From Anaerolineales bacterium (GTDB taxonomy: Bacteria > Chloroflexota > Anaerolineae > Anaerolineales > DRMV01), in NCBI GenBank assembly GCA_027023425.1, contig JALVVL010000017.1, positions 12,942 to 76,941 of the forward strand: DNA of 64,000 nucleotides, in the 5' to 3' direction. The notes under the pieces were generated by a model. That model saw only the letters and a program-made list of their open reading frames with translations, did no database searches and was not told where the DNA came from. Below, one piece after another: positions 12,039-38,996 of the stretch. Each line of letters starts with the position of its first letter. Position 1 is the first letter of the stretch. The translations under genes and the position numbers were made by a program.

Positions 12039-13022
12039 TCAAATGTCAATATCCGCGACTTTCTGCATAGCAATGTAACCAGCGATAATCATCAACAAAC
12101 CCGTTCCAAGAATGCAATAACCAACCGGCTTAAGGGCCGGGTTATCAGGGTGCAACATTTGCCCCATGTAGGAAGGGTTGATGCGGTAAATGATGAAAAA
12201 GAGCAAAATGGGCATAATCGCCAACGCCGTCCCCGAAAAGCGCACCTGCGAAGTAAGCACCCTTATTTCGCCCTTGAGTTTTACCCGCTCGCGGATGGTA
12301 TCGGAAATTGATTCAAGCACATCGGCAAGGTTGCCGCCCACTTCGCGCTGGATGTTGATGGCCGTAATCACAAGGTCAAGGTCGTCGCTGGGGATGCGAC
12401 GAAGCAAATTGTCAAGCGCCACTTCCAGCGGGATGCCGATTTGCACCTCCTGCACCACACGGCGAAACTCGGTGGAAACGGGATACGGCATTTCGCGGCT
12501 CACTGCCTCAAGCGCCTGTAAGGTGGAATAACCGGCCCGCAAGCCATTTACCATCAAGTTCAACAAATCGGGAAGTTGATCGTTGAACATGCGCACACGA
12601 CGCTTCTGACGCCATTTCAAGAAAAAGCCGAGCGAATAGTAGCCCAAGACGAGTCCGGTGACCGTAAAGAGAATACTGCCGCCGCCAATTGCATAGCCGA
12701 GGAGAAGACCGAGCGCAGTTAGCCCTATGCGGACAAACACATATTCCAACGGTTTCAAGCGGACATCGGCACGGGCAAGATCCCGCGAGATTTTCTCCCA
12801 CCAACTGGTCTGCTCCAAGCGGCGGTCTAAGTGCGCCTGCACACCGCTTTCTTCGGCTCTGGTGGCGTCTTGGGCAAATTCATCGTCCTCAAAATAGCCT
12901 TCTAAGCGCTGGTCAACCAATGAGCGATTGGCGCGCATGGTCAAAACAGCGCCTATTATCAACAGCAAAAACGCCAAGCCGCCTCCGGCGATCAAAATGA
13001 GCATAGGATTCAAACCAGCCAT
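12039..13022 (-). CDS. tadB: Tad pilus inner-membrane platform protein TadB (T2SS-F family)
   Basis: 327 aa with the same architecture as TadC. It follows the CpaF ATPase gene. Confidence 0.8.
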   Translation of the reverse strand: MAGLNPMLILIAGGGLAFLLLIIGAVLTMRANRSLVDQRLEGYFEDDEFAQDATRAEESGVQAHLDRRLEQTSWWEKISRDLARADVRLKPLEYVFVRIGLTALGLLLGYAIGGGSILFTVTGLVLGYYSLGFFLKWRQKRRVRMFNDQLPDLLNLMVNGLRAGYSTLQALEAVSREMPYPVSTEFRRVVQEVQIGIPLEVALDNLLRRIPSDDLDLVITAINIQREVGGNLADVLESISDTIRERVKLKGEIRVLTSQVRFSGTALAIMPILLFFIIYRINPSYMGQMLHPDNPALKPVGYCILGTGLLMIIAGYIAMQKVADIDI

Positions 13023-23800: not shown

Positions 23801-23837
23801 AGAAAAAAATGAACAACCCTAAAAAAGACTTTCTCAT
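17823..23837 (-). CDS. alpha-2-macroglobulin family lipoprotein (thioester-less)
   Basis: Signal peptide with lipobox LALTAC, starting from ATG 23837 (gggagg RBS). N-terminal Ig-like modules and long MG-domain-like repeats. A TED-like region follows (LLNYRRSDGTWGWC, alpha/alpha-toroid type). The thioester position reads CIPY (19281-19292) rather than CxEQ. Confidence 0.85.
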   Translation of the reverse strand: MRKSFLGLFIFFFALALTACALSLGKTVNGVLSPTAAHATATAMPAFTRIAPQAGGLALVRAEPAPAAALPIRPTLAFTFNQPLDRASLQSAWRFVDSKGQAVPGKVSWRDDLTFVFTPATPLKPNGAKYRAEFTTALRSKNGGSLASPLSLTYVTARAFAVNAAYPLDGSDNVPVNADITIVFNKPVVPLTQNKATAPLPLRITPSVEGSGRWVSSAVYVFHPSHHLKSNSDYLVSLPAGVRTVEGDVLPKGFSWRFHTESVVVNIIDVSGDDILRGLARYVPLKAPIKIYFSAPMNPDAYKAVVVTAPNGGNVPHFTPEWDSSHSILTLKPDEFYDLATTYTVSVNADARAADGSALLKPVHGKFRTVGKPWIEDTPSTASDVYSPWVFVEFNTFIDEKSLEGHITVQPEPTHGISYEVYGREVHLGIFDPATEYTVTFAPGIADVYGNQTDAPITFTFRTAPLEPSADALLLGQLSIFHADQPQIFYLRYANLDSVTFTLYSLDDQALLSNLADWEVCHPEYNPNAKLLGSMRVDLSDKKDSRFHYLTVDLAKVVGHSLAPGAYCLGVTQSPARAYSSPTDYYQIAVSTESLTFKASPANALAWATGLSDGAPVGGLKVNFYTLKDTEDEGRVVVLSGSAVTNGDGVALVDGLESAPLFALVHDAKHFAIASAAWTRNQAPGSISFWDVRGANPSSKVAFIYTDRPLYRPGQQIFFKGILRQDADLHYTIPHDTRVVVSLSHAGKVVDRQTVSVSSLGTFHGSFLLSDSAPVGGYYLNVLPEQKSAKSEYVPRLGSRFIRVANYHKPVFEVRLMPNPADVAPGQKSEVSLQASYYAGDAVADADVSWKAITLPFYFSPPRAYRAYTFSAEPDVPWLWYWEPERHTASAPSQNGTGKTDAQGKFTFSVSAPQELKNGDEQISVWATVTDRGGNSADGHTVLVSRVSNVYPGLKLNSWLGIVNQPLGIDFVLLNPQGEPLADHALHLDVFEEKWHSVQRLDASGVLRWENSLEVVPVADLGDFTTNADGRGEASFTPDHAGTYRIVATAADDSGRERKAVMRVWVLSADEALMWGESEAKTLPLIPDRASYRPGDVAHIVVTRPFSAPVYALMTEERGKIYSYRLLKIDSPSTTVDLPVKPWMAPVAYVSVVEVSGGDAKRPPDYRLGVLRLPVALEAQRLNVTVTPEKPKAAPGETVKFKVRTTDYAGKPVSAEVSLALVDKALLALAPDNYNLLEKMYSERALRVVTTVSLSQDELSYNLKAMRILPTGSGMGGGGKGADQGGVITVRELFRDTAYWKADLRTNEQGEAEVSITLPDNMTTWVMHARAITADSRVGSAISELKVALPFFVRLHTPAFFTAGDEATLSAVLHNSTDKPLNAEVTLSKAKGLSVKSPLSQKVEVPPKGQAVVSWQVEVPLASRRVDLEVQAVANGYRDASRPVLTLLPDGGIPVFAYKTVETVGLAGVLPKVGAAREYVQPPTGEHYTLRVNLAASLIASVASKLSVKPEEPTECIPYNAFALLKDVAILRMRSSLNLQAAKNDPVKDDALKRLQALLNYRRSDGTWGWCVDDDQSEVMPTAYALDALQAARAAGFPVDSAQITQPAEYLSRVLVRPQQRKYLSLDDQVYIVDVLARSGRPVSAFVYELAKKMKNSPPDRVNTADWAMLLRAAENAKMGADFTKPIVARLENSVTVSASAAHWDKGEAAWWSRWSSPLTATALAVDALLKADPRAPFLQNAVRWLAGRYNSSPRLSDLSDSTILRTLSDWAAFSHEGVANYDYAVFLGGKPATSGHMAQADLLTPKVLTWDEKRVPAGKLTTLDIQRGKGDGVLYYTAYLELTLPADEARAHYAGFSVDRAYYLVSDLDNPVTSAKVGDLVQVRLTVVVPHSEDNVVLTDYLPAGLEPLSGKRPEYLPDEEDYSLDKFRCCGWGGWFFGHREVYYDHVLFHAMHLPAGTYTVVYYARAATPGTFKARPAVVWDSFFPDVRGNTDGAAFTVLGR

Positions 23838-23946
23838 CTTGGCCTCCCAGAGACATTGCAAAGTGAACAAACGTCACTTTGCCACAAAGCGTAAATAAAC
23901 ACAAAGATATCGCTAACGATATTGTACTCCAAATTCCAACCTGCAG

Positions 23947-26310: not shown

Positions 26311-26919
26311 TCACTCTCCCACTTCCCACACAACCGCATTCCTCGGCAGGCGCGGCGGCGGCACTGGGCTTTCGGCAGGATAGCCGATGAAAAGCATCCC
26401 CTGAGGCTCCCACGAAGCGGGCAAAGCAAGGGCGGCGCGCGTTTCGGCTTGCGCGTACAACGGCCAGCACACCCACACACTGCCCAAGCCCTCGGCATGG
26501 GCGGCAAGCATCAACTGCAATGCGAAGGCGGCGACTGACTGAACGGCCATCGTATGCTCAGGCGGAGCGTCGCGGCGTACAACATCCACATCGCGGTTTA
26601 GCAAAAGCGCCACCGGGGCTTCGTCCATGCGGCGGATTGAGCGGGCGACGCGCGCCTCAATCGCCTCCTTGTCCGCTCCCTCAGCCGCCATATCGCGGCG
26701 CATCCGCTCCGTGAGGGCAAAGGCAAGTTTGCGCTTGACCTCGGGCTTGCGCAGGAGCACAATCCGCCACGGCTGGAGGTTGTGCGCCGACGGAGCGTAA
26801 ATGCCGGTATCCAAAATCCGCTCCAGCACCTCATCGGGCACAGGCCGCGGCTGAAACTCGCGCACACTACGCCGCGAGCGCAAAAATTCGTGAAGAGCCT
26901 GCGAGGGTAATTTCGTCAT
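26311..26919 (-). CDS. nitroreductase-family FMN protein (FbiB C-terminal-domain-like)
   Basis: 202 aa with N-terminal RRSVREF and APSAHNLQPW motifs. gggagg RBS. It lies in a cluster with cofE and an F420-dependent reductase. Confidence 0.7.
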   Translation of the reverse strand: MTKLPSQALHEFLRSRRSVREFQPRPVPDEVLERILDTGIYAPSAHNLQPWRIVLLRKPEVKRKLAFALTERMRRDMAAEGADKEAIEARVARSIRRMDEAPVALLLNRDVDVVRRDAPPEHTMAVQSVAAFALQLMLAAHAEGLGSVWVCWPLYAQAETRAALALPASWEPQGMLFIGYPAESPVPPPRLPRNAVVWEVGE

Positions 26920-26934
26920 TCGGCAATCCTCCCG

Positions 26935-27654
26935 CTAAGCCTCAGCATCCGGCGGGTAAACCTCAAAGAGCAAAGATTCATCTTTCGGCCCGCGGTAAAC
27001 GCAAAGCCCAACGCGGGGAGAGTTGACAAACGGCAAAAAGGCGTTGGGCTTTTCCCAAGCCGGATGTTGGCGGGCATGTTCATCGCAATACGCCTCTTGA
27101 GGCCATGCGTCGGTGTAGAGCCATTCCGCAGGTTTGCCGCAGACGCGACAAGGCTTGAAAGGCTTGTAATTGCGCGCCAACAGCCTCACCCCGCCAGCCG
27201 GCACATCCCCCGAATATGCCGCAAGCGGCGTGACGCGCAAGACACTCGGCCAAACCTCATCGTAGGAATATTGCACCGTTTCGCCAACCGTGAGCACATC
27301 CTCAAGCGGCACATCCATCGGTTGGACATGGGCGTATTCGTCCAACACCAATTCCACGGGGGAAGGGTTGGGACGGCGGCCGTAAACCGCTTCGCCTATC
27401 GTGAACTGGCTATAATGCCCACAGCAGTCCACCCAAATGTGGCGGAGGTACTCGTCCAAATCTGCCAAGGTCGCCGAGCGGGGAATTTCCAGCGCCAGCC
27501 AGTAGATTTCGGGGAAGTAGTCGTCCTCAACGAAGATTAGAAACAGCGGCTCATCGCCCTGCTCACGCCCGCGACAGCCGAGCAGATGGGCTTTCATTTC
27601 ATCTTTGGAGAGGGAAGCGCCGCAAACGAAGCATTTGCCCGTTGTTGCTTGCAT
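26935..27654 (-). CDS. hypothetical protein, pRiA4b ORF-3-like fold with terminal Cys/His clusters
   Basis: The pattern LFLIFVEDDYFPEIYWLALEIPRSATLADLDEYLRHIW...GH.SQF...YG ... VQYSYDEVW resembles the PF07929-type family (from memory). It also carries CFVCG...C and CRVCG...CDEH. Confidence 0.4.
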   Translation of the reverse strand: MQATTGKCFVCGASLSKDEMKAHLLGCRGREQGDEPLFLIFVEDDYFPEIYWLALEIPRSATLADLDEYLRHIWVDCCGHYSQFTIGEAVYGRRPNPSPVELVLDEYAHVQPMDVPLEDVLTVGETVQYSYDEVWPSVLRVTPLAAYSGDVPAGGVRLLARNYKPFKPCRVCGKPAEWLYTDAWPQEAYCDEHARQHPAWEKPNAFLPFVNSPRVGLCVYRGPKDESLLFEVYPPDAEA

Positions 27655-27675
27655 AGTTCACCTCAGAGAGCGCGT

Positions 27676-28449
27676 TCAGCGGAAAAGGTCTTTTTCCCGC
27701 GGGCGGATGAGTTCGCGGAACGACGATTCACGAAGCGGATAAGGAAAACCGCGCACATGCACTGCGGGAATCGCTTCATCCGCCTGCCCCATCACCAGCG
27801 AAGCGGCGGCGGCGAGTTCGTCTGCCGCGCCAATTTGGGTGATGCGGAGTTCACGCCCGAGCAAGTCATACCTGCCGCGCAGGTCAACCAGCGCAGGCAC
27901 GCCGCTGACGCCAATGGCAACGCCCATTGTGCCCAAGCGCCAAGCCCGACCATGCGAATCATTGATTATCACACCAAGCCGCCTACCAGTGGCGGCTTCT
28001 AACCGAGAACGCAGGCGCGCCGCCGATTCATCGGGGTTTTCGGGCAAAAGGAGCACGCAGTCCTCGCTGCCGCAGGCGTTGGAATGATCAATACCCGCGT
28101 TGGCGCAGACAAAGCCGCGCTTGTGCTCCACAATCAACACGCCGGGCACGGCGCGGAGCACCTCTGCACTTTCGCGCAAAATCAATTCCACCAAGCGCGG
28201 GTCTTTTTGGGTAAGCGCCGCCAACTCCCGCGCTTTGGGTGAAGGGGAGACGGCGTTCAAATCCACCATGCGGCCTTCGGCGCGCGAGACAATTTTCTGC
28301 GCCACCACGACCACATCGCCGTCGCGCCACAAAACGCCGGAGCGCTCCGCGGCTCCCAAAATCAGCGCCGCGAGGTCATCTCCCCTTTCCACCAAGGGAA
28401 TGCCAAGGAGCGGCGTGAGCACAAGCGGTTGGGGATGCCGCGCCGTCAC
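27676..28449 (-). CDS. cofE: coenzyme F420-0:L-glutamate ligase CofE
   Basis: Motifs GIPLVERGDDLAALI, VVVAQKIVSRAEGR and FVCANAGIDHSN. Its GTG start overlaps the upstream stop (GTGA). Confidence 0.85.
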   Translation of the reverse strand: MTARHPQPLVLTPLLGIPLVERGDDLAALILGAAERSGVLWRDGDVVVVAQKIVSRAEGRMVDLNAVSPSPKARELAALTQKDPRLVELILRESAEVLRAVPGVLIVEHKRGFVCANAGIDHSNACGSEDCVLLLPENPDESAARLRSRLEAATGRRLGVIINDSHGRAWRLGTMGVAIGVSGVPALVDLRGRYDLLGRELRITQIGAADELAAAASLVMGQADEAIPAVHVRGFPYPLRESSFRELIRPREKDLFR

Positions 28450-29114
28450 GATTGCCCCAATCCGACTATACGAACCCCCGCGGATTTTGCGCCGTAGGCT
28501 TTGTTGATGTAAATCAAGAGGCTGGTCAAGCCCTCCACAACGGGGGTATTTTCAATTGGGCCGGCGTCAATTGGGCGAAATCCTGCGGCTTCAACCAATT
28601 CCATCACGCGGCGGCGGTTTGCCTTGCCCCTGCCCGCCACCAAAACATCGTGGTCGGAAGGTTCGCCTTCCCAAAGCACGCCGTGGGCGATGTTTTGGAA
28701 CGCGTCCACCACCGCTACATCGTCGCCGAGGATTTGCTGTGCTTCAAGGGCGGCGCTTCCGGCTTCAGGCAGCCAAACTTTGGTAACTTTGGGGGGCTTT
28801 AGCGGCACGGTAACGTCCACCAAAATTTTGCCGTGGAGGGCATCGCGGACGGCTTCCAGCGTGGTGCGATGGGCGGCGTAAGGCACGGTGAGGATTACGA
28901 TTTCGCCGCGGAGCGCGGCTTCGTAGTTTTCAGCGCCGAAAACGGGGGCGTCGGGGTTGCCCAAGCGGGTGCGGATGGCATCCGCAGCGGAGCGAGCGCG
29001 TTCAAGGCTCCGAGAGCCGATGTAAATTGTGTAGCCCGCCTTTGCCCAACGGTAAGCCAGCCCGCCACCCTCGCGCCCAGTCCCCCCGAGGATTGCCAAA
29101 ACCGGTTTGGTCAT
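28446..29114 (-). CDS. npdG: NADPH-dependent F420 reductase (NpdG/Fno family)
   Basis: Rossmann motif LAILGGTGREGGGLA, a 222-aa size typical of the family, and a ggagg RBS. Confidence 0.8.
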   Translation of the reverse strand: MTKPVLAILGGTGREGGGLAYRWAKAGYTIYIGSRSLERARSAADAIRTRLGNPDAPVFGAENYEAALRGEIVILTVPYAAHRTTLEAVRDALHGKILVDVTVPLKPPKVTKVWLPEAGSAALEAQQILGDDVAVVDAFQNIAHGVLWEGEPSDHDVLVAGRGKANRRRVMELVEAAGFRPIDAGPIENTPVVEGLTSLLIYINKAYGAKSAGVRIVGLGQS

Positions 29115-29336: not shown

Positions 29337-30284
29337 ATGGATTACTACCTAAGCGCAGACATAGGCGGCACACAGTTGCGCGCGGCCTCCTTTGCGGCAG
29401 AAGGGGCGAAGCCGCTGCGCCGCGCCGCTCTGCCCACCAGCGGCGACGAGCCGGTGCTGGAGCGGCTCAAACGGCTGTTGCACTCTGTCCAGCCCAATGG
29501 CGGTACTTTGCTCGGCATCGGGGTCGCTTCACCGGGCCCGCTGGATCCGGTACGCGGGGTGGTGCTGGAAGCGCCCAACATTCCCGGCTGGCGCAACTTG
29601 CCGCTGAAAGCCCTGCTTGAAGACGAATTCGGCGCGCCGGTGGTTGTGGATAACGACGCCAACTTGGCCGCCTTGGGCGAATGGCGCTACGGTGCGGGCC
29701 GAGGTCATCACCACCTGCTCTACCTCACCATCAGCACGGGCATCGGCGCGGGGGTGATTGTAGGCGACCGCCTGATGCACGGCACGCGCGGCTTGGCCGC
29801 GGAACTTGGGCATGTGACTGTGGTGCCGAATGGCCCCTTATGCGGCTGCGGCAAGCGCGGGCATCTGGAAGCCGTGGCCTCGGGCACGGCCATCGCCCGC
29901 ATGGCAGCGGAAGCACTGGCGGCAGGGGAAAATTCCTCGCTGGCGGAACTGCCGCACCCTCCCACCGCCGCGGATGTGGCCGCGGCTGCACAGGCCGGCG
30001 ACCCGCTGGCGCGGCGCATCTTCGCCGAAGCCGGAACCCACCTCGGGCGGGCTTTGGCCGGCTTCCTGCACATTTTCAACCCCAGCGTGGTCATCCTTGG
30101 CGGCGGGGTGGTGCAGGCCGGCGACGTGCTGCTACGCCCGCTGGAAGAGACGATGCGCGCCGAGGTGATGTCGCCCGCTTACCTTGAAGGGCTAAAAATC
30201 ACAACAGCGGAATTGGGCGATAATGCCGGATTATTGGGGGCATTGACGGCAATTCGCGAAGCAACGTATGAGGCGCATTCATAG
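29337..30284 (+). CDS. ROK family sugar kinase (glucokinase-like)
   Basis: Starts MDYYLSADIGGTQLR (ATPase phosphate-1 motif). ROK zinc motif CGCGKRGHLE, plus GGGV. The track start at 29238 lies in repeat DNA. Confidence 0.8.
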   Translation: MDYYLSADIGGTQLRAASFAAEGAKPLRRAALPTSGDEPVLERLKRLLHSVQPNGGTLLGIGVASPGPLDPVRGVVLEAPNIPGWRNLPLKALLEDEFGAPVVVDNDANLAALGEWRYGAGRGHHHLLYLTISTGIGAGVIVGDRLMHGTRGLAAELGHVTVVPNGPLCGCGKRGHLEAVASGTAIARMAAEALAAGENSSLAELPHPPTAADVAAAAQAGDPLARRIFAEAGTHLGRALAGFLHIFNPSVVILGGGVVQAGDVLLRPLEETMRAEVMSPAYLEGLKITTAELGDNAGLLGALTAIREATYEAHS

Positions 30285-30363
30285 CAAAGCGCCAACCAAA
30301 GCCCAAAGCGCACAATTTTACATCCCCCTAACCACGTCCTAACAACAAATTCTCACAATGTTA

Positions 30364-30510
30364 GGAGTTACGCAGTTCTCCCGCTTCATGTCACCGCGGG
30401 GCGGTCGTAGACCGCCGAAGCGGTCTACCCCACTGGGGGATGGCTTCGCCGCCTATAGCGGCTCGCCATGAGATGAAAACGAGCACTTCTATGGGCAACC
30501 GCATAACTCC
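30364..30510. repeat. family-B ~140-bp repeat with terminal inverted repeats (ggagttacgcag ... gcataactcc)
   Basis: Aligns along its length with 52750-52882. Shared blocks are gtcaccgc, gatggcttcgcc, gcggctcgccatga and gaaaacgagca. Confidence 0.75.
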
Positions 30511-30536
30511 TACATTTATGGCTTTTTCCTGTCAGA

Positions 30537-33464
30537 CTACCGCACCGCCACCAGCACCGCCCGCACCATCCGGCGGAAGGGATAGTCTCCCGTGGCCGGG
30601 TCGTAGCCCTCACAAGTCACTAAGGTCAGAACATCATACTTTTCATGCTTCAACAGCATGTGGTGCGCCGCCCAACTTCGCGCCGATAAGCGCTTGTTCT
30701 CCCGCACTTCGTACACATACACCCGACCCCAGGCGTGGATTTCAATCCGGTCGCCATAGCGCAGGTCTTTGAGGTGCAGGAACGGCCCCGGGGTATTGTC
30801 CGCGTTCCACACATGCGCCGTCAGCACCGTGTTCCCGGCCCAAGTGGGGAAGGCCGTACCTTCCAACCAGCCCACTGCATTACCCAACCACGACACATCC
30901 CAGCCATTTTCCGTCAGGGGCACGCCCACGATGGGCAGGCCAAGCCCCAAGGATGGAATCGTCAGCCGCATGTCCATCCCAGCATAGGCTTTAGTGGCCG
31001 GCTGCTGCGGCAAAGTCGTGACCACCCCGCGCGGGAAACCGGTTTTAGGCGGCGCGGGATGTTGCACCACAAAATCATAGATGCTGTCATGGCCGCCGTT
31101 GAGGTGGTTGCCTACAAGATCAGTGATGGACGTAGTGCCGCACACGAAGAGGCGATAGGTGCCGTCAGGCAGGGGCACACCGTTGTTGATATGCGCCGTG
31201 GCCGTGAAGGTGGCGCTGTCGTAGGTCACGCTGTTCACGGTGATTCGGGTATCGTCGGCCTGCACACCGCCTGCGCAGGAGACGGTATCAAAAGCATCGT
31301 TCTTCCCCCGTTCCACCAGCAGGTAGTTGGCCGGATTGGTCACATCGTTGGGGCCGGTGTTGCCCGGCGGGTCATTCACGGCCTCGCTGAAATGCACTTG
31401 GAACGAAGTGAAACCTTGGGTGTAAGCAGAAGTTACAGGGGGACTGACAACTGTGGGCCCAGCCGCATCGTAAGTAACCGTATTGTCGGTGCTGGTGCTG
31501 GCATTGTTGGGGTTGCCGTCCCAATCAGCCACGCGGTTGGCCGCAATGGAAGCCGTCACGGTGCCCGCACCGCTCATACCGCTGACGGCGATATCAAAAG
31601 TCGTATGGTCATAAGGGCTAATCTCGGTAACAGTCGCCGAAAGTGTACCCGAGACTGTACCGCCCAAAGTAACATCAGAGGCATCAAAGGTTGCCGGATC
31701 CACAAAGGGAGTAAATACCGCTGTGAAATGGATGGGGCCTACGTTGGTCGGGTCGGGTTGAGTGGCGGCCTGATTCACGGTCACAGTAAGGGGTGCACGA
31801 CGCACTTCATAAGCCCCAATGTCGCAATGGCTGCCCTGGGGGCGGGCCACGCCGCGCTGGTCGGTGGACGGGCATTCATTGTCCGCCCCGGCGTCTATGG
31901 CGGGAGAGCCAGATTTGAGCGGAAAGACTTGCCGTCCAGGGCCTCCAAAGTCGGTGAGCGCACCTAATTGAGGGTCTTTGCCAATGATGTTGCCGTTGAC
32001 ACCGTCAGTTAAGCCGCAAGCGTGGGCACTGTCCTCAATCAGATTATGGCTTGAAGTATCAGCAATAGCGCTATTAGGGCCGAAGTTGACACAATCTCCA
32101 CCAGAACCGCTGTTGGCGATAATAACATTGATGAGCACTGGCTTGCTTTGGCCGGAGTTGTACATCCCATCACCATCACCACCGTGGGCCGAATTGTTAG
32201 AGAAGGTGACGTTTGTCAATACAGGGCTGCTGTCAAAATTTTCGATACCCCCACCATAATCATAGGCTGAATTACCAAAAAACGTGACGTTCGTCAGTCT
32301 GGGGTTGCTCTTGTAGTTGGAGAGCCCGCCTCCGCTGCCGAATAGTAAGAAATCAGTAAAGAAGCCAACCGCCGCATTGTGCATGAAGGTTACGTTCGTT
32401 AAAACAGGGCTACCCTCAACGCTAAGCATCCCACCACCAAAAGCGGCAGAATTCCCGGAGAAGGTCACATCTGTCAGTGTAAGGCTGCCGCCGTAATTGG
32501 AAATCCCGCCCCCATCACCATCGCCATAAACCGAATTTCCGGAGAAAGTCACATTTTTTAGGGTAAGGTTACTGCCGCCACTGGCTATTCCGCCGCCGTC
32601 ATAGAGGGCGTCATTATTGGAAAAGATAACATTTGTCAATTGAGGGCTTCCCCCACCGATGATCATCCCGCCGCCCGCCTCCTCGGCCTCGTTGCGGGAA
32701 AAGGTAACTTCCGTCAAAATAGGACTGCCCTCCTCTTCATACATCCCGCCGCCATCAAGGTAGGCGTGGTTATCAGAGAAAGTCACATGCGTAAGTTTAT
32801 GGCTACTGTAAACGCTGAAGATTCCGGCGCCATCGTAGGCCAAATTGCCAGAGAAGGTGACGTTCCGCAGCGTAAGGCTGCTGTGCTCGCTGTGTAGCCC
32901 GCCGCCCTCGCGTTTGGGGGAATAAAAATCTTCATCATTAGCCTGTCCCGCGGTGATAGTGAAGCCGTCCAGCACGGCGCCGTTGTTCACATGGATAGCG
33001 GTAAGGACATGATAAGCGTTGTTCCCAGCGAGGTCCAGAATGCTGGTGACCACACCGTGGGCATCGGTGGTGTCATTTTGGTCAATGTCCCCGCTGAGGA
33101 CAGTGATGTTGTGCTCTGGGTCGCGCTGGTCGCGGGCGGTTTCCGTGCCCGCGAAGCCGCCGTAAAGCGCCACCCCGTTCTTGAGCCGGAAGGTGCTGTT
33201 GCGGTCATCATTCGTCTGCCCGGCGCCTTCGTCCGGGTAGTACACGCCGGCTGCCACCCAAATTTCGGTGCAGCCGGCGTCGGCCAGCGCGTCCTGCAAG
33301 GTGGTGTAGGCATCGGCCCAACTGGTACCGTTGTTGGCACCGGTAGCGTCGGCCTTCACATAACAAATCGGCCCGGCCGCGCGCACCGCCGGTGCGGGCA
33401 ACAGGGCCAAGATGACGCTCAACACGAGCGCCGCACGGATCAGGCGTTGGAAAAAGGTTTGCAT
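30537..33464 (-). CDS. secreted parallel-beta-helix (Pmp/PbH1-like) protein with Ig-like modules and a C-terminal sortase domain, paralogue 1
   Basis: Signal peptide from MQTFFQRLIRAALVLSVILALLPAPAVRAAG. About 10 units of the L(T/K)NVTFSGNSA..GGG type, then DQRGVARPQGSHCDIGAYE. C-terminal His (VLTAH), Cys (TLVTC, 30612-30614) and Arg (PFRRMV), with sortase-like spacing of 67 and 13 aa. PPKTGF lies at 31035-31052. Confidence 0.8.
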   Translation of the reverse strand: MQTFFQRLIRAALVLSVILALLPAPAVRAAGPICYVKADATGANNGTSWADAYTTLQDALADAGCTEIWVAAGVYYPDEGAGQTNDDRNSTFRLKNGVALYGGFAGTETARDQRDPEHNITVLSGDIDQNDTTDAHGVVTSILDLAGNNAYHVLTAIHVNNGAVLDGFTITAGQANDEDFYSPKREGGGLHSEHSSLTLRNVTFSGNLAYDGAGIFSVYSSHKLTHVTFSDNHAYLDGGGMYEEEGSPILTEVTFSRNEAEEAGGGMIIGGGSPQLTNVIFSNNDALYDGGGIASGGSNLTLKNVTFSGNSVYGDGDGGGISNYGGSLTLTDVTFSGNSAAFGGGMLSVEGSPVLTNVTFMHNAAVGFFTDFLLFGSGGGLSNYKSNPRLTNVTFFGNSAYDYGGGIENFDSSPVLTNVTFSNNSAHGGDGDGMYNSGQSKPVLINVIIANSGSGGDCVNFGPNSAIADTSSHNLIEDSAHACGLTDGVNGNIIGKDPQLGALTDFGGPGRQVFPLKSGSPAIDAGADNECPSTDQRGVARPQGSHCDIGAYEVRRAPLTVTVNQAATQPDPTNVGPIHFTAVFTPFVDPATFDASDVTLGGTVSGTLSATVTEISPYDHTTFDIAVSGMSGAGTVTASIAANRVADWDGNPNNASTSTDNTVTYDAAGPTVVSPPVTSAYTQGFTSFQVHFSEAVNDPPGNTGPNDVTNPANYLLVERGKNDAFDTVSCAGGVQADDTRITVNSVTYDSATFTATAHINNGVPLPDGTYRLFVCGTTSITDLVGNHLNGGHDSIYDFVVQHPAPPKTGFPRGVVTTLPQQPATKAYAGMDMRLTIPSLGLGLPIVGVPLTENGWDVSWLGNAVGWLEGTAFPTWAGNTVLTAHVWNADNTPGPFLHLKDLRYGDRIEIHAWGRVYVYEVRENKRLSARSWAAHHMLLKHEKYDVLTLVTCEGYDPATGDYPFRRMVRAVLVAVR

Positions 33465-33524
33465 AGCAGCCCCCGATAAGGCATCCTGCTTCCCCCGCGG
33501 GTGCTTCGGCAAAGCCTCAGCACC

Positions 33525-33561
33525 GCGCCCCGCTCTCTCCCCTTGGGAGAGAGCGGGGCGC
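33525..33561. repeat. perfect GC-rich hairpin related to the family-D core
   Basis: gcgccccgctctctcccc / ttgg / gagagagcggggcgc. It lies between the two paralogues, 120 nt downstream of paralogue 2, in the 5' region of paralogue 1. No U-tract follows it. Confidence 0.6.
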
Positions 33562-33683
33562 AGCCGCCGAGCATGAGCGATGCGGCGGGGGATAAGTAAA
33601 GGTGTTCAGACATAACAGCGCTACTTTCATCGTCAACCGATTTTTTCTTCTTCAAACAGTGTTCTCAACGGCGGGCCAAGGGA

Positions 33684-36587
33684 CTACCGCACCGCCACCA
33701 GCACCGCCCGCACCATCCGGCGGAAGGGGTAGTCTCCCGTGGCCGGGTCGTAGCCCTCGCAGGTCACTAAGGTCAGAACATCATACTTTTCATGCTTCAA
33801 CAGCATGTGGTGCGCCGCCCAACTTCGTGCCGGTAAGCGCTTGTTCTCCCGCACTTCGTACACATACACCCGGCCCCAGGCGTGGATTTCAATCCGGTCG
33901 CCATAGTGCAGGTCTTTGAGGTGCAGGAACGGCCCCGGGGTATTGTCCGCGTTCCACACATGCGCCGTCAGCACCGTGTTCCCGGCCCAAGTGGGGAAGG
34001 CCGTACCTTCCAACCAGCCCACTGCATTACCCAACCACGACACATCCCAGCCATTTTCCGTCAGGGGCACGCCCACGATGGGCAGGCCAAGCCCCAAGGA
34101 TGGAATCGTCAGCCGCATGTCCATCCCAGCATAGGCTTTAGTGGCCGGCTGCTGCGGCAAAGTCGTGACCACCCCGCGCGGGAAACCGGTTTTAGGCGGC
34201 GCGGGATGTTGCACCACAAAGTCATAGATGCTGTCATGGCCGCCGTTGAGGTGGTTGCCCACAAGATCAGTGATGGACGTAGTGCCGCACACGAAGAGGC
34301 GATAGGTGCCGTCAGGCAGGGGCACACCGTTGTTGATGTGCACCGTGGCCGTGAAAGTGGCGCTGTCGTAGGTCACGCTGTTCACGGGGATTCGGGTGTC
34401 GTCGGCCTGCACACCGCCTGCGCAGGAGACGGTATCAAAAGCATCGTTCTTCCCCCGTTCCACCAGCAGGTAGTTGGCCGGGTTGGTCACATCGTTGGGA
34501 TCGGTGTTACCGGGCGGGTCATTCACGGCCTCGCTGAAATGCACTTGGAACGAAGTGAAACCTTGGGTGTAAGCAGAAGTTACAGGGGGACTGACAACTG
34601 TAGGCCCAGCAGCATCGTAAGTAACCGTATTGTCGGTGCTGGTGCTGGCATTGTTGGGGTTGCCGTCCCAATCAGCCACGCGGTTGGCCGCAATGGAAGC
34701 CGTCACGGTGCCCGCACCGCTCATACCGCTGATGGCGATATCAAAAGTCGTATGGTCATAAGGGCTAATCTCGGTAACAGTCGCCGAAAGTGTACCCGAG
34801 ACTGTACCGCCCAAAGTAACATCAGAGGCTTCAAAGGTTGCCGGATCCACAAAGGGGGTAAATACCGCTGTGAAATGGATGGGGCCTACGTTGGTCGGGT
34901 CGGGTTGAGTGGCGGCCTGATTCACGGTCACAGTAAGGGGTGCACGACGCACTTCATAAGCCCCAATGTCGCAATGGCTGCCCTGGGGGCGGGCCACGCC
35001 GCGCTGGTCGGTGGACGGGCATTCATTGTCCGCCCCGGCGTCTATGGCGGGAGAGCCAGATTTGAGGGGAAAGACTTGCCGTCCAGGGCCTCCAAAGTCG
35101 GTGAGCGCACCTAATTGAGGGTCTTTGCCAATGATGTTGCCGTTGACACCGTCAGTCAGACCGCAGGCATGGGCACTGTCTTCAATCAAGTTGTGGCCTG
35201 AATTCGTGGAGATCGTGGCATTAGAGTCATTGGCGCAATCCCCGCCGGAAGGACTGTTCGCGATGATAACGTTGGTCAGTACGGGAGTGCTGTTGCCCCC
35301 ATTGAAGATCCCACCGCCGTTATTAGCTGAATTATCAGAGAATGTCACGTTAGTTAATACAGGACTGCTGTCGTAATTACCACTATAGGTGTAGAATCCA
35401 CCGCCATTACCATACGCCGAATTGCCAGAAAAGGTGACGTTCTTCAATATAGGACTTCTGTGATAACTATAGTTGTAAATTCCTCCTCCATCTTCGTAAA
35501 GAGCCGAATTGTCAGAAAAAGTGACATTTATGAGAAATAGCCCGCCATCATTGTTAAACAAGCCACCACCCCCATAATACGCCGAGTTATTCGTGAAAAT
35601 AACCTCCCTCAATGTGGGGTTACCCCAAAAGTTGTACATCCCCCCGCCATCAGTGATCTCAGCCGAATTGCCGGAGAAAGAAACGCCTATCAGTATAGGA
35701 TTGCCAGAGTCATTATACATCCCACCCCCTTCATAAGCCAAATTATCTGAGAAGGTCACATTCGTCAGCTTAAGACTACTTTCAATACTATACACCCCAC
35801 CACCAGCGCCGTTATGAGCAGAGTTGCTCCCAAAAGTAACGTCTACCAGCGTAGGATTACCACCCCAAATGTACATTCCCCCACCGCTGCGGTTAGCTGA
35901 ATTATTAGAGAAAGTAATGTGTGTTAACGTGGGAGTGCCATTATTATTGTATATCCCACCCCCATCATAAGCCAAGTTGCCGGCAAAGGTAACATCCCGC
36001 AGTGTAGGGTCGCTGCGATTGTTGTACATCCCGCCACCCACGCTATTGGGATAATTTCCATTGGCCTGTCCGGCGGTAATAATGACACCGTCTAGGATAG
36101 TGCCGCTGTATGCCCCGCTGCCGGTGACCACATGGTAAGCGTTACCCCCACTGATGTTGTTGGTGTCAACGACCACACCGTGGGCATCGGTGGTGTCATT
36201 TTGGTCAATGTCCCCGCTGAGGACGGTGATGTTGTGCTCTGGGTCGCGCTGGTCGCGGGCGGTTTCCGTGCCCGCAAAGCCACCGTAAAGTGCCACGCCG
36301 TTCTTGAGCCGGAAGGTGCTGTTGCGGTCGTCGTTCGTCTGCCCTGCGCCTTCATCCGGGTAGTACACGCCGGCTGCCACCCAGATTTCGGTGCAGCCGG
36401 CGTCGGCCAGTGCGTCCTGCAAGGTGGTGTAGGCGTCGGCCCAACTGGTGCCGTTGTTGGCACCGGTAGCGTCGACCTTCACGTAACAAATTGGCCCGGC
36501 CGCGCGCGCCGCGGGCGCGGGCAACAGGGCTAAGATGACGCTCAACACGAGCGCCGCACGGATCAGGCGTTGGAAGAAAGTGTTCAT
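33684..36587 (-). CDS. secreted parallel-beta-helix protein with C-terminal sortase domain, paralogue 2
   Basis: Same architecture as 30537-33464, starting at MNTFFQRLIRAALVL (ATG 36587). The last ~495 aa differ from paralogue 1 at only 7 positions. PPKTGF lies at 34182-34199 and the TLVTC Cys codon at 33759-33761. Confidence 0.8.
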   Translation of the reverse strand: MNTFFQRLIRAALVLSVILALLPAPAARAAGPICYVKVDATGANNGTSWADAYTTLQDALADAGCTEIWVAAGVYYPDEGAGQTNDDRNSTFRLKNGVALYGGFAGTETARDQRDPEHNITVLSGDIDQNDTTDAHGVVVDTNNISGGNAYHVVTGSGAYSGTILDGVIITAGQANGNYPNSVGGGMYNNRSDPTLRDVTFAGNLAYDGGGIYNNNGTPTLTHITFSNNSANRSGGGMYIWGGNPTLVDVTFGSNSAHNGAGGGVYSIESSLKLTNVTFSDNLAYEGGGMYNDSGNPILIGVSFSGNSAEITDGGGMYNFWGNPTLREVIFTNNSAYYGGGGLFNNDGGLFLINVTFSDNSALYEDGGGIYNYSYHRSPILKNVTFSGNSAYGNGGGFYTYSGNYDSSPVLTNVTFSDNSANNGGGIFNGGNSTPVLTNVIIANSPSGGDCANDSNATISTNSGHNLIEDSAHACGLTDGVNGNIIGKDPQLGALTDFGGPGRQVFPLKSGSPAIDAGADNECPSTDQRGVARPQGSHCDIGAYEVRRAPLTVTVNQAATQPDPTNVGPIHFTAVFTPFVDPATFEASDVTLGGTVSGTLSATVTEISPYDHTTFDIAISGMSGAGTVTASIAANRVADWDGNPNNASTSTDNTVTYDAAGPTVVSPPVTSAYTQGFTSFQVHFSEAVNDPPGNTDPNDVTNPANYLLVERGKNDAFDTVSCAGGVQADDTRIPVNSVTYDSATFTATVHINNGVPLPDGTYRLFVCGTTSITDLVGNHLNGGHDSIYDFVVQHPAPPKTGFPRGVVTTLPQQPATKAYAGMDMRLTIPSLGLGLPIVGVPLTENGWDVSWLGNAVGWLEGTAFPTWAGNTVLTAHVWNADNTPGPFLHLKDLHYGDRIEIHAWGRVYVYEVRENKRLPARSWAAHHMLLKHEKYDVLTLVTCEGYDPATGDYPFRRMVRAVLVAVR

Positions 36588-36681
36588 GGCTGCCCCCAGC
36601 GGAATCCTCCGAAAGTGTTCTTTGAGACGGGCTATGTAAAAATTATACCGCAAAAACGGCGCCCCATTGCGACTTTCAGAA

Positions 36682-36722: not shown

Positions 36723-37649
36723 ATGCCCCAGAGTGCGCCTCCCTCTAAAGAACCATTGGCTCCATACCTTCCTGCCATCACCCAGAGGGTATTCTCACCC
36801 GTGTCACCGCCGTTGAAGTGGGCTGGGGGGAAAGCGGCTTTGCTCCCGCAAATGCGAAAGCACTTTCCCGAAGTTTTTGGGCGTTACCATGAGCCGTTTC
36901 TTGGAGGCGGGGCAGTATTTTTTTATTTATCCCCGCAACGCGGCGCTAAGGCTTTTCTCTCTGACCTCAACGAAGAACTCATCAATTTTTACCTTGTGCT
37001 TCGTGAGCAGGTGGATGATTTACTCAAGGAAGTGCGGGCATTGCACGAAACTTACCTCCGGCTTGGCGAAACAGAACGCGAGAAATTGTATTATGAATGG
37101 CGCAACGCCGACCGCACTCCGGAATTCAAAAAATGGTCTCCCTTGCGGCGGGCAGTTAGGTTTTATTTCCTCAACAAAACCGCCTTCAACGGTCTTTATC
37201 GTATCAACCGACAAGGCTTGTTCAATGTACCGTGGGGTGGATACAAACGCCCCGCGCTTTACCGCCCACAATTGTTGCGCGATGCCGCGGCTGTTTTGCG
37301 AAAGTTTGCCGTTTTTCTAAAAGCCACATCGTTTGAAATTGTGTTGGACAACGCCCAAAGCGGCGATTTTGTCTATTTTGACCCTCCCTATGCGCCTGTA
37401 TCAGCGACGGCATCCTTCACCACCTACACTTCAGGCGGTTTTGGAGAGGCAGAACAACGGCATCTGGCGAGCGTATGCCACGAGTTAGACCGCCGCGGCG
37501 TCATGTTTTTGCTTTCCAACAGCGATTTGCCGTGGGTGCGAGCGCTCTACACGGGCTTTGCTGTATTCACCGTGCAGGCTCGCCGCAATATCAACAGCAA
37601 AGGCGACAAACGGGGCCCGGTCAATGAAATTCTCGTGCGCAATTACTGA
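36723..37649 (+). CDS. Dam-family (alpha-class, D12) N6-adenine DNA methyltransferase
   Basis: N-terminal LKWAGGKAALLPQM, motif I EPFLGGGAVFF, and catalytic DPPY (37380-37391). Confidence 0.85.
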   Translation: MPQSAPPSKEPLAPYLPAITQRVFSPVSPPLKWAGGKAALLPQMRKHFPEVFGRYHEPFLGGGAVFFYLSPQRGAKAFLSDLNEELINFYLVLREQVDDLLKEVRALHETYLRLGETEREKLYYEWRNADRTPEFKKWSPLRRAVRFYFLNKTAFNGLYRINRQGLFNVPWGGYKRPALYRPQLLRDAAAVLRKFAVFLKATSFEIVLDNAQSGDFVYFDPPYAPVSATASFTTYTSGGFGEAEQRHLASVCHELDRRGVMFLLSNSDLPWVRALYTGFAVFTVQARRNINSKGDKRGPVNEILVRNY

Positions 37650-37664
37650 AACAGGAGCATCGCA

Positions 37665-38996
37665 ATGACCCAACGCGACAAAGCATGGGAAGCCATTTTT
37701 GAGGGGGAGCACATTCCACAAACGCTGGAGAAGCAAGGCTGGGCAACGATCACGACAGAGGTCATCCGCAAAAAGTATCACAAAGAACCACGGCTTTTAG
37801 CAAAAACCGATGCCTATGAGGCGCTTCCCGAAGTGTTCCGCAAAAACGACGCGGCGCTGCTTTCGCTGACTAATGAAGAGTATGCCATCCTCCGCTTAGG
37901 GAACAAAGGCAAACCTCTTTTTCCGAAACTGCCGCCTGTGATTGGCAGGCCGACGCATATACTCATTGAAGATTGCGCTCGGCGTATCGTGACCCTGCCG
38001 TGGGAGGAACATTTCACCAGCGAGTCTCAAGCCATTGATGCCGCACTGGCGGCACACATTTTACAGAATTTTGTGGGCGACGAAAGACTTGTGCTCACTA
38101 TACGGGGGCGAAGGTGGTTTCAGAAATCCTTGCCTCTGCGTTTCTCACTCAAAGGCAGGGTGACCGAGTTTCCTTTGAAAGCGCGCGGTTTCCAAATAGA
38201 GGTGGACGGGGGCTATGAGTCTCCCCGCCATGTGTACCTTCTGGAAGCCAAAAACAAAGCCCACAAAACTTTCAACTTGCGACAGGTAATGTTTCCCTAC
38301 CTATTTTGGAAAGATTATCTACGCGGGCGAAATACCACTAAAACCGTCCGTCCCATTTACATGGTTTACACCGCGCACAATTATTTCCTCTACGAATTCA
38401 CCGTAGAAAAAGAAGATGTGCTCAACTCGCTTCATGTTGTGCGCGCAGGATGGTATGTGCTTGGTGCACCGCCGCTAACCTTAGCCTACATTAGAGAAAT
38501 AGTGCAAACTCACACACCGGCAGATGTTCGGAATGTTCCGTTTCCTCAGGCCGACTCGTTCCTGCGGCTGTATGATATTTTGGAGGAAGTCAAACGCAAA
38601 GGTGCGCTCACTGCAAACGAGATTGCCGAACACCAAGAGTTTACCCTGCGTCAGGGCAACTATTATGCCTCGGCAGCGCGATGGCTTGGCTGGCTGGGAA
38701 AACGGGGAAACGCTTTCGTAATCAGCAAGGATGGCAAGAGGCTTTTGGCCTCTGCCCTCAACGAAAGGCCAAGGCTGATTTTGCAACGGCTGGCACAGCG
38801 CCCGGTTTTCCACGAGGCGCTGCAGTGGTGGGCAACCACTGCCAAATTGCCCACAAAGGGGCAAATTGAACAATGGATTGTTCAAGCCATTGAGAGCAAA
38901 CAGATCAAAGCGCTATCCCAAAGCACCATTCCGCGTCGGGCGAGCACCGTCGCCGGATGGCTCCAAATCCTTGCCGCATGGGTGCGAACACCATGA
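37665..38996 (+). CDS. putative restriction endonuclease (PD-(D/E)xK core) with C-terminal helix-rich, wHTH-like region
   Basis: Motif FQIEVD(181)GGY...12 aa...LLE(194)AK(196) at 38205-38252. It starts 16 nt after the methylase stop with an acaggagc RBS. I recognise no family, so the call rests on the motif plus its position next to the methylase. Confidence 0.5.
   Translation: MTQRDKAWEAIFEGEHIPQTLEKQGWATITTEVIRKKYHKEPRLLAKTDAYEALPEVFRKNDAALLSLTNEEYAILRLGNKGKPLFPKLPPVIGRPTHILIEDCARRIVTLPWEEHFTSESQAIDAALAAHILQNFVGDERLVLTIRGRRWFQKSLPLRFSLKGRVTEFPLKARGFQIEVDGGYESPRHVYLLEAKNKAHKTFNLRQVMFPYLFWKDYLRGRNTTKTVRPIYMVYTAHNYFLYEFTVEKEDVLNSLHVVRAGWYVLGAPPLTLAYIREIVQTHTPADVRNVPFPQADSFLRLYDILEEVKRKGALTANEIAEHQEFTLRQGNYYASAARWLGWLGKRGNAFVISKDGKRLLASALNERPRLILQRLAQRPVFHEALQWWATTAKLPTKGQIEQWIVQAIESKQIKALSQSTIPRRASTVAGWLQILAAWVRTP

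Follow-up and report, generated by a model that had tools for sequence, protein, structure and literature searches.

Textbook sortase biology has two players, a membrane-anchored transpeptidase and a separate substrate protein. In canonical LPXTG sorting, exemplified by Staphylococcus aureus SrtA (sortase classes A–F, PF04203, MEROPS family C60), the enzyme bears an N-terminal membrane anchor, and the substrate carries its pentapeptide about 35 residues from the C-terminus, ahead of a hydrophobic helix and a basic tail. The class C pilus sortases have an N-terminal extension that covers their active site. Here a module is described in which one chain joins enzyme and substrate and both membrane anchors are gone. 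It forms the C-terminus of two secreted proteins encoded by tandem genes on the minus strand (gene 1, 30537-33512; gene 2, 33684-36653) of a 64,000-nucleotide stretch of DNA (the window; positions 12,942 to 76,941 of contig JALVVL010000017.1, assembly GCA_027023425.1) from an Anaerolineales bacterium, whose genome as analysed comprises 2.2 Mb in 45 contigs and is 94% complete. The module, hereafter the cassette, consists of an LPXTG-type motif, a linker and a sortase domain. It shares the fold, the catalytic triad and the TLxTC signature with canonical sortases, and the pentapeptide consensus with a free X position with canonical LPXTG sorting. Unlike canonical sortases, it holds enzyme and substrate in one polypeptide, without an N-terminal membrane anchor directly on the enzyme. 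Unlike in canonical substrates, the enzyme replaces the hydrophobic helix and the basic tail, and the motif is found 167–172 residues from the C-terminus.

The C-terminal ~140 residues of both proteins are a genuine sortase domain, as judged by hidden Markov model (HMM) matching, fold and conservation. In gene 1 the catalytic domain comprises residues 850–988 (30549..30965, minus strand) and matches the Pfam Sortase profile PF04203 with an E-value of 4.9e-18 (65.5 bits); in gene 2 it comprises residues 848–986 (33696..34112, minus strand), with an E-value of 1.5e-17 (64 bits). The whole profile (1–125 of 125) is covered in both proteins, and the scores lie well above the cut-off of 26.6 bits. 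The catalytic residues of gene 1 are His900 (30813-30815), Cys967 within a TLVTC sequence (30612-30614) and Arg980 (30573-30575), which are spaced as His-67-Cys-13-Arg; those of gene 2 are His898 (33960-33962), Cys965 (33759-33761) and Arg978 (33720-33722), all likewise on the minus strand. The three residues are invariant across 125 aligned cassettes and are also present in the stand-alone sortase of this genome, and the TxxTC-type signature occurs in 257 of 259 relatives. Between the two paralogues, 26 synonymous and 11 non-synonymous codon differences are observed in 510 codons. The invariant triad and the mostly synonymous divergence of the paralogues suggest an active enzyme rather than a mere handle, one that appears to be catalytically intact and under selection.

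A preliminary description of the window had proposed that both proteins end in a complete sortase domain, had placed the His and Cys codons of gene 1 at 30813-30815 and 30612-30614 with the Arg 13 or 14 residues further on, and had named poor conservation of these residues in homologues as an objection. The full-length profile match in both proteins, the sortase fold returned by structure prediction and structural searches, and the invariance of the triad in the 125 relatives bear this proposal out; both codon positions are correct, and Arg980 lies 13 residues past Cys967. Its further points, that the enzyme occupies the place of a substrate's hydrophobic helix and basic tail and that no transmembrane segment follows the signal peptide, also hold, since the sortase domain follows the motif instead and the hydropathy of the last 170 residues is too low. 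The best 19-residue Kyte-Doolittle mean in this region, calculated for 152 family members including both open reading frames (ORFs), is 1.0 in the median and nowhere exceeds 1.8, and a hydrophobic membrane-spanning segment after the motif was not found in any of the 152 members. A positively charged C-terminal tail with a motif within ~50 residues of the end is absent from the two proteins, both of which end in the last strand of the sortase domain. No other part of the chain therefore seems available, as far as can be read from the sequence, to hold the protein to the cell after the motif.

The sorting motif is located ~25 residues before each sortase domain. In both proteins this LPXTG-type pentapeptide, as found in cell-wall sorting signals, reads PPKTG, at residues 821–825 of gene 1 (31038-31052, minus strand), where it is followed by the invariant Phe826, and at residues 819–823 of gene 2 (34185-34199, minus strand), again followed by Phe. 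The preliminary description had seen neither a stand-alone sortase nor an LPXTG substrate in the window. The first half of this statement stands, as the stand-alone sortase lies elsewhere in the genome; the second does not, as both proteins themselves carry PPKTG. In gene 1 the predicted scissile bond is Thr824–Gly825, and the linker between the motif and strand β1 of the sortase domain comprises residues 826–849 (30966..31037, minus strand), with a conserved length and several conserved residues.

The motif is under strong constraint in the family. A sequence of the form xPx[TSA][GAS]F is present in 256 of the 259 fetched relatives, and among these 256 the Gly is found in all, the Thr in 251 and the Leu in 225. 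The X position is free (A, S, G, D, E, Q, K, N or R), as in true sorting signals. In the alignment of 125 cassettes, whose members are 42–76% identical to gene 1, the Phe after the motif is invariant, the motif Pro, Thr and Gly are kept in at least 90% of the sequences, and the same holds for a Gln and a Tyr of the linker. The distance between motif and C-terminus is similarly fixed: among the best 150 relatives, 147 bear the motif, and in 145 of these it lies 167–182 residues from the C-terminus (mode 169, mostly 167–172). The presence of a conserved motif ahead of the enzyme strengthens the idea, put forward in the preliminary description, of an enzyme in the place of a sorting signal; the cassette would be best described as a sorting signal whose membrane part was replaced by an enzyme.

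Within this genome, eight sortase domains are encoded, of which one belongs to an ordinary enzyme and seven are located at the C-terminus of long secreted proteins. The open frames of the seven fusions span 648 to 3509 residues, one of them (700 residues) ending at the edge of its contig. Their motifs are LPKTG (two), LPQTG (two), LPNSG (one) and PPKTG (two), followed by F[AP]P or FPR, and the length of the linker is similar in all seven. When all six-frame ORFs of at least 90 residues in the 2.2-Mb genome were searched with the pattern [LP]Px[TS]GF[AP], eight matches were obtained, seven of which are the sortase fusions, with the motif 167–176 residues from the C-terminus; the placement of the motif is therefore not a matter of chance. 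The passengers are of different kinds. They comprise the Pmp-type β-helix with a choice-of-anchor Q domain of the window pair, arrays of SdrD_B, GEVED, SpaA and DUF11 domains in a tandem pair of ~3300–3500 residues on contig C14, a DUF11 and CARDB protein, a lamin-tail domain (LTD) protein and a Pro/Thr-rich repeat protein.

The module extends far beyond this genome. A profile built from five cassettes was searched against 1.84 billion representative proteins (clusters at 50% identity) and gave 19905 matches at E <= 1e-3, with at least 1424 clusters at E <= 1e-30. Among the best 150 representatives, which range in length from 187 to 5482 residues, the module is found at the extreme C-terminus in 148, and the profile match begins at or ahead of the motif in 148. 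Passengers in relatives include cadherin, Big_5 and EEP nuclease domains. As the passengers are unrelated and all but two of the best 150 representatives end in the module, the cassette appears to be a portable C-terminal sorting module; the survey of the architecture suggested in the preliminary description thus reveals a large family beyond these two genes. Relatives with a named source belong to Anaerolineales, Anaerolineae and Chloroflexota metagenome-assembled genomes (MAGs), where they go by nothing more specific than "sortase", "LPXTG-site transpeptidase family protein" or hypothetical, an annotation that hides passenger and cassette alike. A species-level genome collection contains at least 595 cassette stretches, including those of the cultured Ornatilinea apprima P3M-1 (L098) and of a Flexilinea MAG.

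In an even sample of the order to which the window belongs, the cassette occurs in 34 of 81 genomes, 22 of 50 genera and 10 of 17 families, with 1–10 copies per genome that are often arranged in tandem; at the level of the phylum Chloroflexota, an even sample of 151 genomes yielded strong matches in this one order only. A stand-alone sortase of ~300 residues (105–125 bits) is found in 78 of the 81 order genomes, comprising 33 of the 34 cassette carriers and 45 genomes without a cassette. The remaining carrier, G037 (93% complete), contains three fused modules and gave no match to a stand-alone sortase. As almost every genome of the order has the stand-alone sortase, phylogenetic profiling did not separate processing in cis from processing by a housekeeping enzyme. 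Two groups of proteins were considered as further forms of the module and rejected. Short members of 239–402 residues, which might have been passenger-less forms, are devoid of signal peptides and apparently represent shortened gene calls. Sortases of ~260–290 residues in related genomes, which might have been stand-alone versions of the module, are ordinary transmembrane-anchored enzymes of another type, and one of them adjoins a canonical substrate with LPTTG and a transmembrane segment.

With respect to the established sortase classes, none of the NCBIfam class models reaches its cut-off for the enzyme of the cassette. The scores against cut-offs, in bits, are 42/166 for class F, 40.8/160 for class C, 30.6/160 for class E, 27.7/165 for class D, 28.1/140 for SrtD and 19.5/158 for GN. 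The cassette profile gives scores of 160–300 bits for the relatives and at most 122 bits for other sortases, and by these profile scores the sortase module appears to form a clade of its own. In the ESM Atlas only generic "sortase domain" clusters were retrieved, at 0.80–0.83, which is below the lead level of 0.9.

A structure of the module was predicted with AF2. An initial model based on a 5-sequence alignment had a predicted local distance difference test (pLDDT) value of 58.8, with values below 50 for the motif region, and was replaced by a model based on the 125-sequence alignment, with a pLDDT of 94.5 and a predicted template-modelling score (pTM) of 0.88. In this single-chain model the motif and linker (model residues 21–40) have pLDDT values of 94–96 and are therefore predicted to be ordered against the sortase domain. 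The model displays the eight-stranded β-barrel fold of sortases, as is evident from the AF2, Foldseek and VIA results. All matches listed by Foldseek against the PDB are sortases, with class C first. The best VIA-align superposition is with group B Streptococcus (GBS) SrtC1 (3tbe_C; Z 17.9, root-mean-square deviation 2.9 over 144 residues), and 137 compared chains have Z-scores of at least 8. Class C also ranks first in a sequence profile search of the PDB (E 4.4e-16).

The extent of these alignments is informative with respect to the motif. The lidded sortases (class C and C. diphtheriae SrtA) as well as B. anthracis SrtA align from model residue 13–17 and thus cover the motif; sortases of classes A, E and F align only from model residue 38–44. 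In the HMM alignment, the stretch after the motif Gly matches the G-L-D-P-F region of the Ebp class C sortase. Since both structural and sequence alignments of lidded sortases cover the motif segment, the LPXTG segment is predicted to sit where class C sortases hold their pseudo-substrate lid. The sortase core and a 35-residue motif segment were also predicted as two separate chains, using the family's own alignment. This split-chain prediction has a score of 0.86, compared to 0.04 for the best control, with at least 86% of contacts agreeing between runs and a pLDDT of at least 64 for the partner chain; of 80 solved complexes, 58 attain this mark, as do 2 of 110 mismatched pairs, a calibration that is rough here since the family's own alignment was used. 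The contacts with the lowest predicted error are those of Cys166 with Thr23 and Gly24 and of His99 with Thr23, Gly24 and Phe25 (model numbering), while Arg179 is located in the interface. The motif Pro contacts core residues 70 and 72, within the conserved W-D-x-x-W-L of the alignment consensus. Short of demonstrating it, the split-chain model thus supports binding of the motif to the sortase core.

From these observations a self-contained cassette of substrate and enzyme can be envisaged, which cleaves its own LPXTG motif and joins the passenger to an acceptor amine; this reading we place slightly on the probable side. The protein would be exported by the Sec pathway, after which the signal peptide would be removed. 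The C-terminal module would emerge last, fold, and lay its own LPXTG into the active-site groove at the position of the class C lid, as in the model. By analogy with established sortase chemistry, Cys967 would then attack the Thr824–Gly825 bond, leaving the passenger linked to the sortase domain as a thioester, and an amine nucleophile would resolve the thioester, such that the passenger becomes covalently attached and a sortase fragment of ~19 kDa with a Gly-Phe start is released. The acceptor would most likely be a peptidoglycan precursor or cross-bridge. Peptidoglycan is made by this organism, as four penicillin-binding protein (PBP) transpeptidase genes are present in the genome, which makes such a precursor or cross-bridge of the wall the obvious candidate; a lysine on another surface protein or a matrix component would be an alternative.

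Several points weigh against this reading. Every step past docking, that is, the cleavage itself, whether it proceeds in cis or in trans, and the acceptor, is a matter of inference, and for the amine acceptor there are candidates only. A leaving group that is still docked would favour re-ligation. The tight leaving-group side of the motif (Gly-Phe-Ala/Pro-Pro) over the active site also fits a pseudo-substrate lid that is never cleaved, and PPKTG, with Pro for Leu, as found in the window proteins, occurs in only 3 of the 256 motif-bearing relatives. The docking result may in part reflect likeness to solved complexes of sortases with LPXTG peptides (7s51, 8t8g), since such complexes are already available. 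Finally, a stand-alone sortase co-occurs with the cassette in nearly every carrier genome, this one included; the exception, G037, is only one genome and is not complete.

The other sorting components of this genome bear on the question whether the cassettes work on their own. The stand-alone sortase, on contig C33, has 297 residues and an N-terminal transmembrane segment; its best score is with class E, under the cut-off. The sole candidate for a canonical sorting signal is encoded on contig C38 (plus strand, 19883-20590; locus L023:1384-2091, minus strand). This protein of 236 residues has an acidic N-terminus, an internal transmembrane segment and a C-terminus with LAKTG, a hydrophobic segment and RRLRRTT, and matches no Pfam family. 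Its LAKTG motif would fit a class-E-type (LAXTG) enzyme such as the stand-alone sortase of contig C33 appears to be. As the lone stand-alone sortase is class-E-like and the lone canonical candidate combines LAKTG with a transmembrane segment and RRLRRTT, the cassette system seems to be separate from the housekeeping sortase system. A conventional arrangement is seen in the related genome G011 (locus L016, C74:7300-9100), where a transmembrane-anchored sortase of ~280 residues (TCWPY...HR) is encoded directly downstream of a protein with LPTTG, a transmembrane segment and a Lys/Arg tail. Enzyme and substrate here form a conventional gene pair that has no counterpart of its type in the present genome.

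The correspondence to class C sortases raises the question whether the LPXTG-F segment is cleaved at all. It could be an auto-inhibitory pseudo-substrate lid like the class C DP[WFY], on a sortase that is carried by a long extracellular stalk and acts in trans. This would be in line with the observation that the matches ranking highest in both structure and sequence are class C and other lidded sortases, in alignments that cover the motif segment, and that the post-Gly segment lines up with G-L-D-P-F; a structural role is also suggested by the invariance of the Phe, by the conservation of the linker and by its fixed spacing. A lid, however, requires neither an exact Thr-Gly nor L-P-x-T-G with a free X, yet these are what the family conserves (Gly in 256 and Thr in 251 of 256). 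Furthermore, with LAKTG as the lone canonical signal candidate, the seven enzymes of this genome would be nearly without substrates except each other, and the passengers are typical cargo and adhesin domains of very different kinds that do not provide a common stalk. The LPXTG consensus with free X, the invariant scissile Gly and the scarcity of other LPXTG substrates argue for a real substrate, and a lid is considered unlikely. Cleavage could alternatively be carried out by the membrane-anchored stand-alone sortase, with the fused domain merely presenting or retaining the motif or performing a second step. The near-ubiquity of the stand-alone enzyme, in this genome with its N-terminal transmembrane segment as well as in 33 of 34 cassette carriers, is in keeping with such a division of labour. 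A mere handle would not, however, hold His, Cys and Arg invariant over 125 diverged sequences, and the model places the motif in the active site of the fused domain itself. The stand-alone enzyme must have other work in the 45 genomes in which it occurs without a cassette, its candidate substrate carries LAKTG and not LPXTG-F, and it went undetected in G037 with its three cassettes. Processing by the housekeeping enzyme is accordingly also judged improbable.

Two further alternatives keep the fused enzyme active on its own motif and differ in the fate of the passenger. By the same chemistry another copy or another surface protein could serve as acceptor, through a lysine or through its N-terminus, so that fibres, a sheath or a biofilm matrix would be built. 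The closest relatives in sequence and fold are indeed the pilus-assembling class C sortases, some passengers hold SpaA and SdrD_B domains, which are characteristic of pilins and of fibrillar adhesins, and the multiple, often tandem copies per genome would suit a polymer. The carriers are, by their record titles, Anaerolineales and Anaerolineae, which are known as filamentous bacteria. On the other hand, the module alignment shows no conspicuous conserved lysine or pilin motif, and the passengers share no common acceptor domain; little weight is given to this alternative. The sortase domain could, at the other extreme, only hydrolyse the Thr-Gly bond and shed the passenger as a free soluble protein. 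Sortases slowly hydrolyse the acyl-enzyme when no nucleophile is present, as is established for SrtA, and past the motif the chain offers no means of retention at the cell. But the precursor is already free of any anchor once the signal peptide has been removed, such that release needs no cleavage, and the upkeep of a ~170-residue enzyme in more than 1400 clusters solely for its own removal would bring no obvious benefit. Mere self-release is thus very improbable.

If the passenger is indeed transferred by its own cassette, the family might be regarded as a new sortase class, a single-turnover, substrate-fused "auto-sortase" that ligates itself to the wall or sheath, to cells nearby or to foreign surfaces; we advance this proposal tentatively, as falling somewhat short of probable. 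Such an enzyme would need neither a membrane-bound sortase nor a membrane-retained precursor and would amount to a natural self-ligating protein tag, an extension that we hold with the same reserve, as a little more doubtful than not. The cassette may also be an evolutionary relative of the class C lid, with a real substrate where the pilus sortases keep a pseudo-substrate. If the self-contained reading is true, it would define a new route by which monoderm-type bacteria fix very large and diverse surface proteins, and would explain the envelope decoration of the abundant and poorly understood Anaerolineales. It would further provide a natural model of how sortases recognise cis-substrates, and possibly of how the class C lid arose, and a compact module of ~170 residues for protein ligation and surface display that works without a separate enzyme.

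The two genes of the window share the same architecture upstream of the cassette. If begun with a TTG at 33512, the open frame of gene 1 has 991 residues; its likely coding part is 30537..33464, starting at the ATG at 33462-33464 (975 residues), which is identical to the gene call on record P0153. Gene 2, the tandem paralogue, is likely to be coding at 33684..36587 from the ATG at 36585-36587 (967 residues), identical to the gene call on record P0154. The signal peptide of gene 1 comprises residues 17–45 of the 991-residue frame (33378..33464, minus strand); it was read straight from the translation and its cleavage site, of the signal-peptidase-I type without a lipobox, would lie between VRA and AG. 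The signal peptides of both proteins end in VRA or ARA before AG. The Pmp-type parallel β-helix repeat region of gene 1 spans residues ~190–512 (31977..32945, minus strand) and is matched by Beta_helix, Chlam_PMP and POMP_repeat. Chlam_PMP (PF02415) is matched in both proteins, with 35.9 bits in gene 1 and 56.3 bits in gene 2 (cut-off 20.6), and Beta_helix (PF13229) in gene 1 only (52.5 bits, cut-off 25.9); NCBIfam POMP_repeat (TIGR01376) reaches 42 bits (cut-off 15). The choice-of-anchor Q domain (NF041518, cut-off 25 bits) follows at residues 513–570 of gene 1 (31803..31976, minus strand; E 5.9e-24, 84.1 bits) and residues 511–568 of gene 2 (34950..35123, minus strand; E 1.1e-23, 83.2 bits). 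The region between this domain and the motif in gene 1 (residues 571–820; 31053..31802, minus strand) belongs to no Pfam family, and residues 571–822 gave no Pfam match even at permissive E-values. Of the preliminary description, the pair of frames with one architecture is present as described with agreeing translations, and the Sec signal peptide, the Pmp-type β-helix and the choice-of-anchor module were recovered from translation or from Pfam and NCBIfam matches; the two immunoglobulin (Ig)-like modules it had placed at residues ~571–815 found no confirmation, with zero Pfam matches. A C-terminal outer-membrane β-barrel of the autotransporter type is not among the Pfam and NCBIfam families of either protein, the C-terminus being formed by the sortase domain.

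At the DNA level the paralogues have a mosaic structure. For the two genes of the window, the first ~150 residues are encoded by DNA that is ~90–95% identical, and the last ~500 residues, from the choice-of-anchor Q domain to the stop codon, by DNA that is 97.7% identical; the β-helix middle in between has ~50% protein identity and gives zero blastn match. In the C14 pair (12244-33054; L009, L010), the last 450 nucleotides, which encode the sortase domain, are 100% identical, with ~65–70% identity thereafter. These mosaics suggest concerted evolution or gene conversion of the module, or an exchange of passenger segments between neighbours. The organism is found again in metagenomes from hydrothermal vents, in four studies. 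Both variable middles are covered by public contigs, likewise of four studies, and both cassettes are therefore real. These contigs leave 33744-34911 mostly uncovered, presumably because this near-identical repeat was assigned to the first copy, and the apparent contig variants in the C-terminal block are mostly differences between the paralogues and not population variation.

In the intergenic region downstream of gene 1, at ~30362-30500, an interspersed repeat of ~135–140 bp with internal hairpins is located, which probably occurs also near 33527. It has ~100 blastn matches genome-wide with 84–97% identity, and the contig depth over it is 360–1885, compared to ~13–145 in adjoining bins. It looks like an element of the repetitive extragenic palindromic (REP) or miniature inverted-repeat transposable element (MITE) type; Rfam and tRNA scans of the intergenic stretch 30150-30600 gave no matches. 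None of the neighbours in the window is sorting-related, and no conserved partner gene was seen among them. Just upstream, and adjoining the paralogue pair, a Dam-type N6-adenine DNA methyltransferase (PF02086) and a 443-residue protein with DUF6996, DUF6997 and DUF7226 are encoded at 36723-38996 (plus strand), which may constitute a restriction-modification or defence pair. On the minus strand, a cluster at 26311-29114 is indicative of a coenzyme F420 metabolism in this member of the Chloroflexota; besides an unassigned 239-residue ORF it encodes a nitroreductase, an F420-dependent NADP oxidoreductase and an F420-0:gamma-glutamyl ligase. A protein of 2015 residues of the alpha-2-macroglobulin family (A2M, bait region, MG2, bMG6, bMG10), with four N-terminal Big_5 Ig-like domains, is encoded at 17823-23870 (minus strand), and a ROK kinase is another neighbour.

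In full-text literature searches, with subscription journals outside their coverage, no description of a natural LPXTG-sortase fusion was found. A survey of fibrillar adhesins sought sortase motifs only within the last 50 residues and would therefore miss these cassettes, and a survey of polymorphic toxins does not mention sortase. Among described sortases, the spacing of the triad, 67 and 13 residues in the cassette, resembles that of SrtA (64 and 13). The class C pilus sortases, represented by GBS SrtC1 (3tbe), S. pneumoniae SrtC-1 (2w1j) and A. oris SrtC (2xwg), are the best matches in structure (Z 16–18) and in sequence (E 4e-16). The cassette differs from them in that their DP[W/F/Y] lid is replaced by LPXTG-F-(A/P)-P, that no transmembrane segment is present in or after the module, and that a passenger of up to 5000 residues lies upstream. 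The microbial GAIN-domain surface proteins likewise join a self-processing domain to diverse adhesion domains, according to a preprint (bioRxiv 10.64898/2026.05.12.724683), in which the domain, of an unrelated fold, is described as acting by autoproteolysis and non-covalent association and not by transpeptidation. Thioester-domain adhesins and alpha-2-macroglobulin-type proteins resemble the cassette in concept only, as secreted latent acyl donors that attach covalently to a target amine; there a preformed Cys-Gln thioester is used and here a sortase-activated peptide bond, and the folds are unrelated, without homology. Engineered purification tags of the type SrtA-LPXTG-protein are man-made, and their order is usually enzyme-motif-cargo. 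The cassette is distinguished from these by the order cargo-motif-enzyme and by being natural and conserved, with a linker that is predicted to be docked. As in the cassette, sortase and LPXTG reside in one chain in these self-cleaving fusion tags, which act intramolecularly or between copies (compare PMC10334657). To our knowledge, such a man-made self-cleaving sortase-LPXTG tag would be the closest functional analogue of the cassette.

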